Shown: piece after piece, positions 4,397 to 29,466 of the stretch
How positions within the stretch are numbered: position 1 is the first letter of the stretch
Layout of the letters: each line of letters opens with the position of its first letter
UHGV virus genome: UHGV-0125347
From: a virus
Reading direction: 5' to 3' (one strand)
Length of the DNA stretch: 41,471 bases
Made by a program: the position numbers and the translations under genes
Notes under the pieces: generated by a model
The model's database searches: none
What the model saw: only the letters and a program-made list of their open reading frames with translations
What the model was told of the DNA's origin: nothing

Positions 4397-4585
4397 ATGG
4401 GGTATAGCGAAAGACAACAAAAACAAATTCTAAAGTGGATTCAAAATGATAGAAGGGCTATTCAAGAAGATCGTGAAGCCTTAAAAAAAGCTGACATGCT
4501 GACCAGTAGGAAAATGGAGCAATTTCAAAGTGAATTAGAATTCTTAAGGGAAATGGAGTTAGAGAATAAGGGGCAACGTCTATGA
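4397..4585 (+). CDS. Hypothetical coiled-coil protein
   Basis: 62 aa, charged and helical. Its stop overlaps the next start (ATGA). Confidence 0.5.
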   Translation: MGYSERQQKQILKWIQNDRRAIQEDREALKKADMLTSRKMEQFQSELEFLREMELENKGQRL

Positions 4586-25216: not shown

Positions 25217-26149
25217 ATGAAGAAAAAACAATTAATGAAAATGGATATTCAAATGTTTGCTCAAACATGGAATCCAGACAACGTCACTGTATTAGAGAAA
25301 AAAGATGGAACAATTCCAGATAAGTACAACACTTTAATTTTAAAAGATGTGATGGAAAATTCTAAGTTAATGCAGTTGGCTAAATATGAAGAAATGGACG
25401 GCAAAGAAAAGAAATTCGAATACTTTGCAGAAGGTCCTGGGGCGTACTGGGTTGGTGAAGGCGAAAAGATTAAAACGTCTAAACCTAAATGGTTAAACGT
25501 AACGATGACTGCGAAAAAAATTGGTGTTATTATCCCAGTTTCTCGAGAATATTTAACTTATAAGATGTCTGATTTCTTTACTCAAATGCAACCAAAAATC
25601 GCAGAAGCATTTTATAAGAAAATTGATGCGGCTACTATCCTTGATAAAGAAAATCCATTCTCTCAATCTATTGAAAAATCTGTCATTGCAGCTAGTAATG
25701 TAATTGAGGGCGACTTGACATATGACAACATTTTAGCATTAGAGGATTTGCTTGGAGAAGGTGAATACGATCCGAATGCTTTCATTTCTAATCGTAAGAA
25801 TCGTACAGTGTTACGTGAAGCAAGTAAAAAAATTGGTGACACAACTCAATTTATTTATGATCGTGTCAGCAATACTATTGATGGACTACCTGTAGCAGAT
25901 CTAAAATCTATGGATAAAGGAAACCTTTATACTGGTGATTTTGATTACTTGCGCTATGGTATCCCATTTAACATTAATTTCAAAATTTCAGAAGAAGCTC
26001 AATTATCTACTTTAACGAATGAAGACGGAACGCCTGTCAACTTGTACGAACAAGAATTGGTTGCTTTACGAGCTACAATGGATATTGGTTTCATGGTCAT
26101 CAAAGATGAAGCATTTGCTAAGATTCAACCAAAAGCTGCGGGGGAGTAA
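25217..26149 (+). CDS. Major capsid protein
   Basis: 310 aa with an N-terminal IQMFA motif. Position after the scaffold. RBS AGGAGG. Confidence 0.85.
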   Translation: MKKKQLMKMDIQMFAQTWNPDNVTVLEKKDGTIPDKYNTLILKDVMENSKLMQLAKYEEMDGKEKKFEYFAEGPGAYWVGEGEKIKTSKPKWLNVTMTAKKIGVIIPVSREYLTYKMSDFFTQMQPKIAEAFYKKIDAATILDKENPFSQSIEKSVIAASNVIEGDLTYDNILALEDLLGEGEYDPNAFISNRKNRTVLREASKKIGDTTQFIYDRVSNTIDGLPVADLKSMDKGNLYTGDFDYLRYGIPFNINFKISEEAQLSTLTNEDGTPVNLYEQELVALRATMDIGFMVIKDEAFAKIQPKAAGE

Positions 26150-26211
26150 CTAGCCCTGTTGTTGGAAAAGTAACACCGACAACAAATGGGGCGACAATCG
26201 AACTAACTTAG
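26140..26211 (+). other. -1-frame C-terminal extension of the capsid gene (VTSPVVGKVTPTTNGATIELT)
   Basis: The -1 frame is open from 26122 to TAG 26209-26211. A GGGGG run at 26140-26144 sits immediately before the capsid stop. The peptide is conserved with the tail-gene copy. Confidence 0.45.
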
Positions 26212-26222
26212 GTGGTGTTTAG

Positions 26223-26555
26223 ATGTCAGAGATAGCAAATGATGTAAAAAAATTATTAAATGGTAGTCTTGATGAAAAATTAGAAATCATTGAAAGACGT
26301 ACAAAAGATCGGCTTCAAAATATATTGAATGTCACTGAGTTACCAAAAAGCTTTGATTCAGTTGTATATGAAGTAACTTTAAAACGATTTAATCGTATTG
26401 GCCAAGAAGGAATGCAATCTTATTCTCAAGAAGGTTTATCTATGGCATTTCCAGACTCTGATTTTTCTGAATATCAAGATGAAATTGAAGAGTATAAGAA
26501 CAAGGAAATAGAAGAACTTTATAAGCCTAAACGTGGGAGGTTTGCATTTTCATGA
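26223..26555 (+). CDS. Head-tail connector (gp6-like)
   Basis: 110 aa. Position and composition are typical. Confidence 0.7.
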   Translation: MSEIANDVKKLLNGSLDEKLEIIERRTKDRLQNILNVTELPKSFDSVVYEVTLKRFNRIGQEGMQSYSQEGLSMAFPDSDFSEYQDEIEEYKNKEIEELYKPKRGRFAFS

Positions 26556-26887
26556 GATATTTAGATGAAATTACCTTTGTAAAAAAATCTTCAGAATCGC
26601 ATTATGATCCAAATTCAGGTGAATGGATTGAAGAAGAACCGTTTAGAAAAACTGCTGATGTCAATGTAACTGACATTGGTACAGATCGTTCTATTACTAT
26701 TTTTGGAAGCATTAAAGAAGGGGCTAAGGTCATTAGGACACAGCCCCTTTTTGTTATTCCAGAATTTGATTACATTGAGTTTGAGGGTAAAACTTGGGAA
26801 GTTATTACAAGTAGAGTTCCTGCATTAAGAAATAGCTTGATTATTCAGGAAGTGATTATTGATGGCAAGAAGTCAAGTAAGAATTAA
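26552..26887 (+). CDS. Head closure / head-tail adaptor protein
   Basis: 111 aa with an ATGA overlap. Confidence 0.65.
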   Translation: MRYLDEITFVKKSSESHYDPNSGEWIEEEPFRKTADVNVTDIGTDRSITIFGSIKEGAKVIRTQPLFVIPEFDYIEFEGKTWEVITSRVPALRNSLIIQEVIIDGKKSSKN

Positions 26888-27242
26888 TGGACTAGCTGGA
26901 ATTTCAAAAAAACTAAAGAGAAATGTTCAACTTGATGATGTGAAAAAAGTTGTTAGAAATAACACAGCAGAATTAACCGCTAATATGCAAGCTGAAGCCG
27001 GAAAGGTGTTAACTGGACACTGGGAAGGTAAAAAGTTTGTTAAACCTACAGGGGCAACAAAAAGAAGTATCGTTATGAGGCTTTCGAACAATGGTTTTTC
27101 TGGGCATACAGGACCAGGAACAGAATACGCACCGTATTTAATAAACGGTACGAGATTTATGGTGAAACGTGATTTCTTTTTACCACCGCTGAAACAACAA
27201 AAAGTGAAATTTAGAACGGACTTGGAAAGGTTGATGAAATGA
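26862..27242 (+). CDS. HK97 gp10-like tail-component protein
   Basis: 127 aa. Position in the gene order. Confidence 0.6.
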
Positions 27243-27628
27243 TTAAAACAAGAGATCAATCAATCTTCGATGAAGTGTATAAGAAGTGTCAATCACTGGG
27301 TTATGAAACCTACGATTACAAACCTATGAATGATGTAGGTTATCCATTTGTCGAATTAGAAGATACTCAGACACTGCACCAAGCCAACAAGACTGATATT
27401 AAAGGTTCAGTTACATTGAATCTATCTGTATGGGGATTGGCAAAAAAACGTAAACAAATATCGGATATGGCTTCAGCAATTTTTGCTGAGGCTCTATCTA
27501 TTTCTGAAACGGAAGGTTATTATTGGTCGCTCAATATCCAATCAAGCGGTATTCGGTTAGTAGATGACATTTCGACTAACACACCATTGAAGCGGGCAAT
27601 GATATCTTTAGAATTCAAAATACTATAG
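27239..27628 (+). CDS. Tail completion / terminator-like protein
   Basis: 129 aa. Position before the major tail protein. Confidence 0.55.
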
Positions 27629-27643
27629 AGAGAAGGAATATAA

Positions 27644-28174
27644 ATGGCTAATGAAGCAAAAGTAGCGGCTAAAGGTATTGATATTATTTTACTTTTCCGT
27701 TTGTTAAAAAAATCAAAAGAGGAAGCAGCATGGAAATTAGCTTTCCAGACAGAACATGAAAATACAAAGACAAAAGATAGTGACTCCGTGGCCACTAAAG
27801 ATGGTCCGATTCGCATCCCAGGGTCATTAGAAATTGATTTTTCGGCAACATCTATTTTATCAGTTGGTGATCCATATGTTGACCAGCTAGAAGAGGCTTT
27901 AGACAATGACGATATTATTGAAATCTGGGAAATCAACAAAGCAGAAAAAGGCACAGGAGATAATGCTGACAAATACAAGGCAACCTATTACCAAGGATAT
28001 GTAACATCATTTGGCAAATCACCTAATGCTGAAGACACCGTAGAAGTTTCATTAGAATTTGGTATCAATGGTAAAGGTGCAAAAGGATTTGCGACATTAA
28101 CTGCTGATCAAGAAGAAGTAGTTCAATATGTCTTCAAAGATACGACTATTGAAACAGCTGATCCGGGAAAGTAG
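27644..28174 (+). CDS. Major tail protein
   Basis: 176 aa with a strong RBS, upstream of the chaperone and tape-measure genes. Ends at the slippery GGGAAAG followed by TAG. Confidence 0.8.
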   Translation: MANEAKVAAKGIDIILLFRLLKKSKEEAAWKLAFQTEHENTKTKDSDSVATKDGPIRIPGSLEIDFSATSILSVGDPYVDQLEEALDNDDIIEIWEINKAEKGTGDNADKYKATYYQGYVTSFGKSPNAEDTVEVSLEFGINGKGAKGFATLTADQEEVVQYVFKDTTIETADPGK

Positions 28175-28236
28175 ATAGCCCTTCTGTGGGAAGTGTAACT
28201 CCTACAGTCGATGGGGCTTCTATTGAATTAAGCTAA
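28165..28236 (+). other. -1-frame extension of the major tail gene (VDSPSVGSVTPTVDGASIELS), in frame with the downstream Ig ORF
   Basis: G GGA AAG heptamer at 28165-28171 immediately followed by the 0-frame TAG. The -1 frame is open from 28162 to TAA 28234-28236. Confidence 0.5.
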
Positions 28237-28251
28237 GAAAGGAAAATAAAT

Positions 28252-28710
28252 ATGGTGGATACTTTTAAAATTTATAAAGGCCAAACCGAAGTTGTTTCCG
28301 GCCAATCACCTTTAACTATAACAGGAATGGAACCTAACACCTCAGTGCCGGCTGGTGAGTACCAAGTAACTCGTGTTGTTAATGGAAAAGAATCAGAGCG
28401 AGTAGATATTCCAGCTTTTAAAACTTTGTCTATTGCTGTAACTGGCTTAGAGTTTTCTCCTAAAACGTCCACAGCAGATGCGGGTACTGCAGGTAGCCGA
28501 CAAATCACAGCAACTGTTTTACCTGAAAATGCAACCAACAAGAAGGTAAACTATGATATTTCACCTGTAACAGAAGGTCTTGCTGTCTCTGAAACAGGAA
28601 ATATTACTTGGACAGAAGCGGTACCGGCTGGTGTTTATACCACAACAGGAACAACAGAGGATGGTAAAAAAACAGCTCAACACACCTTAACATTGAATAA
28701 TCAAGCTTAA
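28252..28710 (+). CDS. Ig-like decoration protein (FN3-like + Big_2 domains)
   Basis: FN3-like SPLTITGMEPNTSVPAGEYQVTRVVNGKES and Big_2-like ITATVLPENATNKKVNYDISP. Confidence 0.75.
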   Translation: MVDTFKIYKGQTEVVSGQSPLTITGMEPNTSVPAGEYQVTRVVNGKESERVDIPAFKTLSIAVTGLEFSPKTSTADAGTAGSRQITATVLPENATNKKVNYDISPVTEGLAVSETGNITWTEAVPAGVYTTTGTTEDGKKTAQHTLTLNNQA

Positions 28711-28765: not shown

Positions 28766-29116
28766 ATGCAAATCGAAATTAAAGGAAAAAAATATAACTG
28801 TATTTTTGGAGTCAAGTTTATTCGTGAATTGGATAAGCAGCATGGGGTAGTTCGCAATGATGTAAATCTTGGGATGGGACTAACAACATTATTACCGCAG
28901 CTAGTAAGTGGAAATATCGTTGTTTTATCTGATGTACTTTACACAGCTACCATTACGGAAAAAAGTAGACCTTCTAAGGATGAAGTAGATGAGTTTGTTG
29001 AAACTGTTGATGATATTGAGGCGTTATTTGATGAAACGTTGAAAAACTTAGAAGAAAGCAATGCGGGAAAGTTAACGGTCAGAAATTTCAAGAAAGCTCT
29101 GATGGAGAACAAGTAA
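28766..29116 (+). CDS. Tail assembly chaperone (gpG-like)
   Basis: 116 aa, directly upstream of the tape measure. Contains GGGAAAG at 29065-29071. Confidence 0.75.
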   Translation: MQIEIKGKKYNCIFGVKFIRELDKQHGVVRNDVNLGMGLTTLLPQLVSGNIVVLSDVLYTATITEKSRPSKDEVDEFVETVDDIEALFDETLKNLEESNAGKLTVRNFKKALMENK

Positions 29117-29466
29117 GAGAGGAACTAACCTCAGCTGAAGCTTATGAAAATATTCTTATTAATTGTTTTCGTTACCTAGAAATTACTGACTTATCAGAAA
29201 TTGAACGAATGACTTTGTATGAATATGAAGTTAGGCTATTGGCGTTTCAGTTAAAAAGACTTGACCATGAAAGAGACCTCTATCTTCAATCTTGGCTAAA
29301 TAACCAAATTAAGGCGACTAAAGGTAAAAAATCTGAACCTTATTATAAGGAATTCAATAAGTTTTTCAATTATGAAGAACGAGAGAAGCTTATTTTGGGT
29401 AAATCATTAATTGATGAAAAAGTTGATATAGGAGCAATTGATTTATTAAGAAAAGCAAATAAGTAG
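29071..29466 (+). CDS. gpT-like portion of the G-T chaperone fusion (via -1 PRF)
   Basis: The -1 frame is open from 29035 through 29466, contiguous with the annotated 29209 ORF. Canonical slippery site G GGA AAG at 29065-29071. Confidence 0.65.
   Translation, partial: VNGQKFQESSDGEQVREELTSAEAYENILINCFRYLEITDLSEIERMTLYEYEVRLLAFQLKRLDHERDLYLQSWLNNQIKATKGKKSEPYYKEFNKFFNYEEREKLILGKSLIDEKVDIGAIDLLRKANK

Follow-up and report, generated by a model that had tools for sequence, protein, structure and literature searches.

The frameshift extensions known from phage capsid and tail proteins consist of whole domains added in cis, or of unrelated sequence. We describe here a 21-residue peptide, the tag, that is encoded in the −1 frame directly after the stop codons of both the major capsid gene and the major tail tube gene of the virus genome UHGV-0125347 (the window, that is, the whole stretch of 41,471 nucleotides that was analysed; all features named below lie on its plus strand), together with a 152-residue protein, the partner, encoded just downstream of the tail gene. 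Homology relates the tag to two strands of an FN3 (fibronectin type III) domain, and the beginning of the partner to the other five.

Related extensions have been described in several phages. In SPP1, some of the tail-tube subunits (gp17.1*; 3:1) gain an FN3 domain through a frameshift where the tube gene ends (PMC8718954). The window resembles it in the putative frameshift at the tail-tube gene end, in coming from a Bacillota siphophage and in the putative display of FN3 on some subunits, but in SPP1 the whole FN3 domain lies in cis, whereas the window extension would comprise strands A and B with the rest supplied by another gene, and the tag is found on the capsid too. Frameshifts in both the capsid and the tail gene occur in Lactobacillus phage A2 (gp5A/5B and gp10A/10B) and in the Listeria phages PSA, A118 and A500 (PMC5009743). 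As predicted for the window, both major virion proteins of one phage gain C-terminal frameshift extensions in these cases. Their extensions are, however, long (reportedly about 85 residues in A2) or unrelated in sequence, and a trans partner has been described for none of them. The window extension is not a complete Ig-like or FN3 domain of the class of Fraser et al. (2006), to which SPP1 gp17.1* and A2 gp5B belong, but 21 residues, corresponding to two strands, and then a stop. The known +1 extensions of Listeria PSA were considered as relatives of the tag and rejected, their sequences being unrelated and not tag-like.

Only for the capsid gene of φEf11 had such a shift been proposed before, and tentatively. 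φEf11 virions, the one source of experimental support, which is indirect, give two prominent bands, of 38 and 41 kDa, both of which are the ORF10 major head protein, and Stevens et al. (2016) proposed a −1 shift adding 21 residues to ORF10, which they called speculative (PMC5221750). φEf11 is like the window in this 21-residue −1 capsid extension, in having a slip site (A AAA AAA TAG) followed by a hairpin, and in its tail region; it is unlike the window in having another capsid gene and another slip site. The φEf11 study missed the in-frame copy of the peptide in ORF15, its likely half-FN3 nature, and ORF16 as the putative other half. As a class, such recoding is known; the split domain, the shared tag and the trans partner appear to be undescribed, and in the literature on phages we found no description of a split FN3 domain or of trans docking.

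Twin tags and their conservation

The major capsid gene (HK97 type, 310 residues, 25217–26149; Pfam Phage_capsid PF05065, E 1.9e-31; PHROG 10, major head protein) ends in GCG GGG GAG TAA with its stop at 26147–26149, and the −1 frame continues as GGVTSPVVGKVTPTTNGATIELT* to a stop at 26209–26211. The major tail tube gene (176 residues, 27644–28174; Pfam Phage_tail_2 PF06199, E 7.4e-18; PHROG 238) ends in CCG GGA AAG TAG with its stop at 28172–28174, and the −1 frame continues as GKVDSPSVGSVTPTVDGASIELS* to a stop at 28234–28236. By translation, the predicted capsid extension (26146–26211) is V T followed by SPVVGKVTPTTNGATIELT and TAG, which would lengthen the protein by 21 residues from 310 to 331, and the predicted tail extension (28171–28236) is V D followed by SPSVGSVTPTVDGASIELS and TAA, which would lengthen it, again by 21 residues, from 176 to 197. 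The first peptide is conserved in related loci and the second is found in frame in φEf11 ORF15.

A model that read only the letters of the window (the sequence-only reading) had given the coordinates and −1-frame sequences of both peptides, which proved exact on re-reading, and had counted about 12 differing codons, half of them synonymous; we find 12, of which 6 are synonymous and 6 non-synonymous. By the Nei-Gojobori method the pair shows 9 synonymous and 9 non-synonymous differences and a ratio of non-synonymous to synonymous differences per site (pN/pS) of 0.38, and 13 of the 19 core residues are identical. Each tag retrieves the other at a BLOSUM score of 66 (z 7.3) among 82,830 six-frame positions of the window, the runner-up scoring 24–31. 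The likeness of the two tags far exceeds chance.

With the 152-residue protein as query, 80 viral loci were retrieved, giving about 85 related loci overall. Nearly all of them encode two tag-like peptides, at the extreme ends of capsid-size and tail-size open reading frames (ORFs); of the 86 sources scanned, 74 have two copies of the tag per genome, one closing a capsid-size ORF and the other a tail-size ORF, invariably at its extreme 3' end. Across 46 distinct tag DNAs from the related loci, internal stops are absent from the tag frame (0/46) and present in 43 and 34 of the 46 in the other two frames, and the tag frame has a pN/pS of 0.53, the control frames one of 1.25. The conserved columns (P2, V4, V7, P9, T10, G13, A14, I16 and L18) fit a putative strand-turn-strand peptide. 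IMG/VR was also scanned starting from the tag, with a degenerate DNA pattern for nine conserved residues that required no stop and was independent of the partner gene. In all but one of its 132 matches (131/132) a stop lies exactly one codon past the motif, and for 105 of the 132 the partner gene is in the same locus, most of the other loci ending before its expected position. Distant phages retain the tag peptide on unrelated DNA, and the spread of the tag takes in phages of Enterococcus, Staphylococcus and Bacillaceae.

In φEf11 (ORF15, 197 residues) and four further loci the tail tag is in frame 0. Two one-base differences bring this about, GAT CCA GAA AAA GTA GAT and GAT CAC GGG AAA GTA GAT, and the φEf11 type (L002 4500–4520, CCA GAA AAA GTA) and the L030 type (4400–4426, CAC GGG AAA GTA) are independent in-frame tail alleles. 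In these alleles, therefore, the tube protein is made with the tag as its C-terminal extension, and the φEf11-type tail tolerates full tag occupancy. In-frame tags, for which no frameshift is needed, also stand at the C-termini of several other proteins. The purifying selection on the peptide that the sequence-only reading had proposed is thus supported by frame-0 tags in two independent tail alleles and at other C-termini. The φEf11 tail hairpin is also weakened, from GGGA to GGAA. ORF15 of φEf11, at 21.5 kDa with its in-frame tag, ran at 28–30 kDa on sodium dodecyl sulphate polyacrylamide gels, which its authors left unexplained.

The FN3 relationship of tag and partner

The partner gene (28252–28710, 152 residues; PHROG 341, E 5e-53) carries the RefSeq label "major tail protein". 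Its product comprises a 58-residue N-terminal domain (N-domain; 28252–28425), predicted to be FN3-like with strands C, C', E, F and G only, from homology to the N-domain of P0059 and an AlphaFold2 (AF2) model of a homologue, and a C-terminal Ig-like domain of the Big_2 type (28435–28683). The Big_2 match of the window protein is weak (PF02368, 16.7 bits against a cut-off of 22.8), and many homologues have a precomputed PF02368 hit. In the PDB, a profile of homologues of the C-terminal domain matches the Big_2/Ig domains of 7quz (E 5e-12), of T5 pb6 and of the 6qvk major capsid protein, which we take to be that of phi29. Library matches of the partner were limited to PHROG 341, the weak Big_2 hit and a weak beta-sandwich family, and no match to a tail-tube fold or family was found for the 28252–28710 product, only the FN3-like and Big_2 domains. 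The label "major tail protein" is probably wrong, here and for the RefSeq relatives AU086_gp14, PI32_gp45 and PHIEF11_0016, a matter of hundreds of records.

A 60-residue N-domain query against 1.84 billion representative proteins gave 108 hits. Some 70 of them are in small proteins and begin at residue 1–5; some 30 are in giant multi-repeat surface proteins, where the match is to the FN3 core only. In P0143, P0100, P0095, P0068, P0115 and P0132 the domain is internal and a tag-like segment lies directly upstream of it. A chimera of the window tail tag and N-domain gives an unbroken alignment with residues 575–668 of P0143 (39% identity, E 3e-20, with a 3-residue gap at the joint), and the corresponding capsid-tag chimera aligns to residues 245–328 of P0100 (E 5e-15). 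Judged by alignment, P0143 575–668 is a natural, unsplit, single-chain version of tag plus N-domain. The FN3 profile extends in the same way: the N-domain of the partner at locus L085 (P0059) matches positions 29–82 of the 84 in Pfam fn3 when taken alone (31.7 bits), and positions 2–82 when joined to NKPVNVDASNVTETSVTLAWD, the tag with which the adjacent capsid gene ends (46.4 bits, E 4.8e-12). The window N-domain is 34% identical to that of P0059 end to end (E 9e-8); Pfam found nothing on the window tag plus N-domain chimera beyond a weak RGI_lyase beta-sandwich hit.

When a profile of 25 tag plus N-domain sequences was run against the PDB, about 43 of the 46 hits were FN3 domains, several of them over the full length, with none rivalling them. 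The best sequence match of this profile was the C-terminal domain (residues 221–282) of 5e7t_B, 'Minor structural protein 5', presumably Lactococcus phage Tuc2009 BppA (E 4e-4); that match spans the half-domain part only. No sequence relative of the half-domain family was found in the PDB beyond generic FN3 domains and this protein, and Foldseek with the P0012 model returned nothing but tandem Ig proteins of a generic kind. As modelled by AF2, the truncated N-domain of the homologue has five strands, at a predicted local distance difference test (pLDDT) score of 95–98. In the model of P0132 the N-terminal truncated domain likewise has five strands and the unsplit domain has seven, the tag-like segment forming the first two; this homologous domain is modelled as the seven-strand FN3 sandwich (A-B-E / C'-C-F-G). 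From the profile extension, the alignments to unsplit domains and the modelled strand counts together, we infer that the tag is FN3 strands A and B and that C, C', E, F and G come from the partner, in which its Big_2 domain follows them.

The genes for the two halves are arranged in several ways. The partner gene lies 3' of the tail gene in some phages and 3' of the capsid gene in others, and in PricklyPear the partner is a 66-residue half-domain alone. In the Staphylococcus Kayvirus Baghdad (L087 1928–3336), three consecutive genes encode a 210-residue protein with an in-frame C-terminal tag, a protein made of half-FN3, Big_2 and tag, and a 75-residue half-FN3, a set that suggests a head-to-tail assembly of the three proteins. 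The partner-like proteins P0012, P0132 and P0142 end in an in-frame tag of their own, P0132 consisting of half-FN3, full FN3 and tag, and self-polymerisation or capping by such proteins is possible. Tags are also carried by proteins that are neither capsid nor tail proteins, adjoining genes for the receptor half.

What is found is an arrangement of the donor-strand type, in which an Ig-like fold short of some strands is encoded together with a distinct peptide that is homologous to those strands. The suggestion of the sequence-only reading, that the tag is an anchoring strand for the 28252–28710 protein in trans, is indicated by the homology of the tag to strands A-B and of the partner to strands C-G. 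A complex in trans is favoured because the two halves are kept together under selection across phages of Enterococcus, Staphylococcus and Bacillaceae, and because the position of the partner gene varies, the partner can be a half-domain alone, and the Kayvirus has its chain from tag to receptor.

In the scheme we propose, some ribosomes would slip by −1 on the two codons that precede the stop, at G GGG GAG (before TAA) in the capsid gene and at G GGA AAG (before TAG) in the tail-tube gene, probably aided by the adjacent stop codon and by a hairpin 5–6 nt downstream, and would append 21 residues to a subset of capsid and tail subunits. The appended peptide would provide the A and B strands of a beta-sandwich of the FN3 type, whose five other strands would be the first 58 residues of the 152-residue protein; it would complete the incomplete partner domain in trans, and one gene product would be hung on both head and tail. 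Frameshift efficiency would set the occupancy of the decoration, which would reach 100% on a tail whose tag is in frame, such as that of φEf11. Both the −1 frameshifting in the window phage and the binding of tag to partner are predictions from sequence comparison, and on this footing we consider it probable that head and tail both take up the same Ig-domain protein, whose fold the tag completes in trans, and that frameshifting determines how many subunits are tagged. By analogy with known phage Ig-like domains, its Ig/Big_2 domain may serve adhesion to cell-wall or mucosal glycans.

Shift sites and downstream hairpins

The tail shift site, G GGA AAG (28165–28171), is a canonical X XXY YYZ heptamer in zero-frame register that abuts the TAG stop. 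The sequence-only reading had named it as such, and we find the identical heptamer reused by the phage at its tail-chaperone G/GT site (29065–29071). The −1 shift that the same reading placed at the end of the capsid gene falls on a non-canonical heptamer, G GGG GAG (26140–26146), which abuts the TAA stop; GGGGGAGTAR stands at the same position at 34 capsid and 19 tail sites, and G GGG GAG is the commonest class of site, with 53 scanned tag sites in related loci. The residue at the capsid junction would be Glu after a tandem slip or Gly after a P-site slip, the sequence being compatible with both, and the two routes predict distinct peptides, AAGEVTSPVVGK versus AAGGVTSPVVGK. The predicted junction peptides of the shifted products are AAG[E/G]VTSPVVGK, VTPTTNGATIELT and ...DPGKVDSPSVGSVTPTVDGASIELS.

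In related loci the shift sites abut the stop or lie one codon upstream of it. The −1 sites are of at least ten kinds, among them G GGG GAG, G GGA AAG, G GGA AAC, G GGA AAA, C CCA AAA G, A AAA AAA, G GAA AAG, TCA AAA and G GGG AAG; C CCA AAA is reportedly also the slip site of phage A2. Other genera take a +1 route, at a proline codon CCC adjoining the stop. Such +1 sites are ACA CCC TAG and TTA CCC AGC TAA in the Enterococcus phage PricklyPear (Efquatrovirus) and ACC CCC TAA in a Logan contig; in Staphylococcus phage 3A the capsid gene and the tail gene alike end in TTA CCC AGC TAA. The identical TTA CCC AGC TAA is located at L088 1236–1250 and 3397–3411 (capsid and tail gene of phage 3A) and at L086 5862–5876 (tail gene of PricklyPear). 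It is a recurrent +1 site and, as far as we found, is unannotated.

A stem-loop follows each site in the window, the hairpins starting 5–6 nt past the heptamers. At the tail gene it spans 28170–28224 with a core at 28177–28218 and has a minimum free energy of −24.8 kcal/mol, which 6 of 200 shuffled sequences equal (z −2.4). At the capsid gene a candidate frameshift stimulator lies at 26153–26192, 6 nt past the heptamer (centroid −17.4 kcal/mol). The capsid hairpin of φEf11 has −19.9 kcal/mol and a z of −3.1.

The region as a whole shares 98% identity with vB_EfaS_IME197 and EFC-1, which are siphophages of Enterococcus faecalis, and, starting at the head-tail adaptor gene, 92% with φEf11; the adaptor gene is the one that follows the capsid tag in the window phage. 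The tail-chaperone site lies near the end of the chaperone gene (ORFs 28766–29116 and 29209–29466), with G GGA AAG in register, and from it the −1 frame is open through 29466, spanning the next ORF. The site at 29065–29071 is the classical gpG/GT tail assembly chaperone frameshift; annotations of relatives list the two ORFs as separate genes.

Competing explanations and known docking systems

Several observations weigh against the docking of a recoded tag on the partner. The window N-domain scores below the Pfam fn3 thresholds, its link to FN3 running through homology to P0059 and through the unsplit domains. AF2 models the five-strand domain confidently without the tag, and the C-terminal in-cis tags of P0012 and P0132 are unstructured in the models (pLDDT 59–69 and below 50); docking in cis is probably precluded in these two proteins by geometry, the linkers being too short. 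The capsid heptamer G GGG GAG is not of the form X XXY YYZ, and only the Gly tRNA re-pairs perfectly on it. The capsid hairpin (−17 to −19 kcal/mol) is indistinguishable from shuffled sequences (z −1.2), and RNAalifold on 31 sites gave no consensus structure. For the trans complex speak the closer likeness of tags within one genome (0.63) than between genomes (0.56; permutation p about 2e-4) and the correlation of tag identity with partner identity (r 0.67–0.87), but both relationships are confounded by shared ancestry and linkage. Mass spectrometry on φEf11 found no peptides of the extension (PMC5221750). The predicted C-terminal tag peptides VTPTTNGATIELT and VDSPSVGSVTPTVDGASIELS contain no basic residue, and this may be why matrix-assisted laser desorption/ionisation missed the φEf11 extension.

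Some of these points suit a different reading, in which the frameshifted tag acts alone as an inter-subunit arm, or is the stump of a lost Ig-like extension, and the 152-residue protein is independent and binds elsewhere. The models with a confident five-strand domain and undocked C-terminal tags speak for it, and short C-terminal arms that pack on neighbouring tail-tube subunits do exist, for example the C-arm of 80α gp53 (PMC8718954). A stump, however, would not keep purifying selection in two genes per genome across phages of Enterococcus, Staphylococcus and Bacillaceae. A lone tag also sits badly with the homology by which tag and partner make up a single FN3 domain, divided in every case at the same loop, and with tags on proteins other than capsid and tail that adjoin receptor-half genes. 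We regard this reading as unlikely.

The two 60-nt stretches might instead be RNA elements only, such as hairpins unrelated to frameshifting, terminators or mRNA stabilisers, with peptide conservation as a by-product. Both do form hairpins, and in a common, hand-drawn register 71% of positions are paired over 31 sequences, against 35–53% when the register is slid. Covariation is modest (score 0.119; 2 of 500 shuffles score as high). The codons of the invariant Pro2 and of Gly13-Ala14 also form the outer stem, GCCC/GGGC, and an RNA constraint may be behind part of the conservation at these columns. A purely RNA-level function is nevertheless very improbable given the tag frame, which is open in all 46 DNAs and lower in pN/pS while the other frames are closed in most, the stop one codon past the motif in nearly every pattern match, the presence of the peptide in frame 0 in several proteins, and the lack of an RNAalifold consensus.

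At the tail locus, readthrough of the TAA, or re-initiation, could be imagined to yield a covalent fusion of tail protein, FN3 and Big_2. Here the tail tag and the ORF 28252–28710 are in the same frame, separated only by the TAA and five codons (ERKIN), and the stop is located at the position of the conserved FN3 Trp. The frame of the partner ORF, however, differs from that of the preceding tag in about half of the loci, on which ground stop-codon readthrough was rejected as a general explanation, and the window capsid tag precedes the adaptor gene and not the partner. A Shine-Dalgarno-like element read from the sequence, AAAGGAAA (28238–28245, core AGGA), lies 8 nt upstream of the partner ATG and argues for independent initiation, not readthrough, and the homologues share one start point at the same Met (M..[FY].[IV]Y[KR]G). 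TAA readthrough is rare in bacteria, and a fusion of this kind is hardly credible.

That the stretch is a linker at module boundaries, maintained so that mosaic phage genomes can recombine homologously, is scarcely tenable: L006, L008, L012 and L014 do combine a φEf11-type capsid with a window-type tail and keep the tag region, but what is conserved is the amino-acid sequence, amid many synonymous differences, and distant phages have the same peptide on unrelated DNA. In these four mosaic genomes (about 2380–2470) the φEf11-type capsid gene ends with A AAA AAA TAG and the window-type tail gene has its −1 site; the capsid module has been swapped and the tag retained.

Fold completion in trans, as we propose it for tag and partner, has counterparts outside the frameshift extensions. 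In chaperone-usher pili, an Ig-like fold that lacks strand G is completed by one N-terminal strand of another polypeptide. The tag system is like the pili in pairing an incomplete Ig-like fold with a donor peptide and in that subunits with both could chain (compare the Kayvirus set, P0012 and P0132), but it is strands A and B that are missing, the donor is C-terminal and would be delivered by recoding, and no chaperone is evident. SpyTag/SpyCatcher and engineered split Ig-like domains use a short tag and a truncated catcher, which rebuild one domain that is locked by an isopeptide bond; the tag system is similar in its pair of tag and truncated Ig-like domain and in the putative use of such a pair for cargo attachment. 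No invariant Lys/Asp/Asn-Glu set was seen in the 46 distinct tag DNAs, and binding of the tag is therefore presumably non-covalent. T4 Hoc, an Ig-domain protein with a gene of its own, is a decoration of the virion surface whose binding depends on recognition of the assembled capsid lattice. The partner is like Hoc in being separately encoded, in its Ig domain, in its putative surface decoration and in probably being dispensable; unlike Hoc, its docking site would be a recoded peptide, portable among capsid, tail and other proteins.

If the proposal is right, a second "major tail protein" misannotated in hundreds of Enterococcus and Staphylococcus phage genomes, the therapeutic Kayvirus included, would be accounted for, and each genome would contain several unannotated recoding sites, among them the recurrent non-canonical G GGG GAG next to a stop. 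It would also suggest a natural display handle for phage engineering, with cargo placed on the 58-residue half-domain or with the 21-residue tag relocated. Decoration proteins would then have a new mode of attachment, through a domain of which a recoded tag forms one part and a free protein the other. More broadly, we lean towards the view that Bacillota phages use a portable tag-and-catcher code, in which a half-FN3 peptide of about 20 residues, reached by a −1 or +1 shift or encoded in frame, would mark docking points on capsid, tail and accessory proteins, could be daisy-chained as in the Kayvirus, and would be presented at a number of sites set by the efficiency of recoding.

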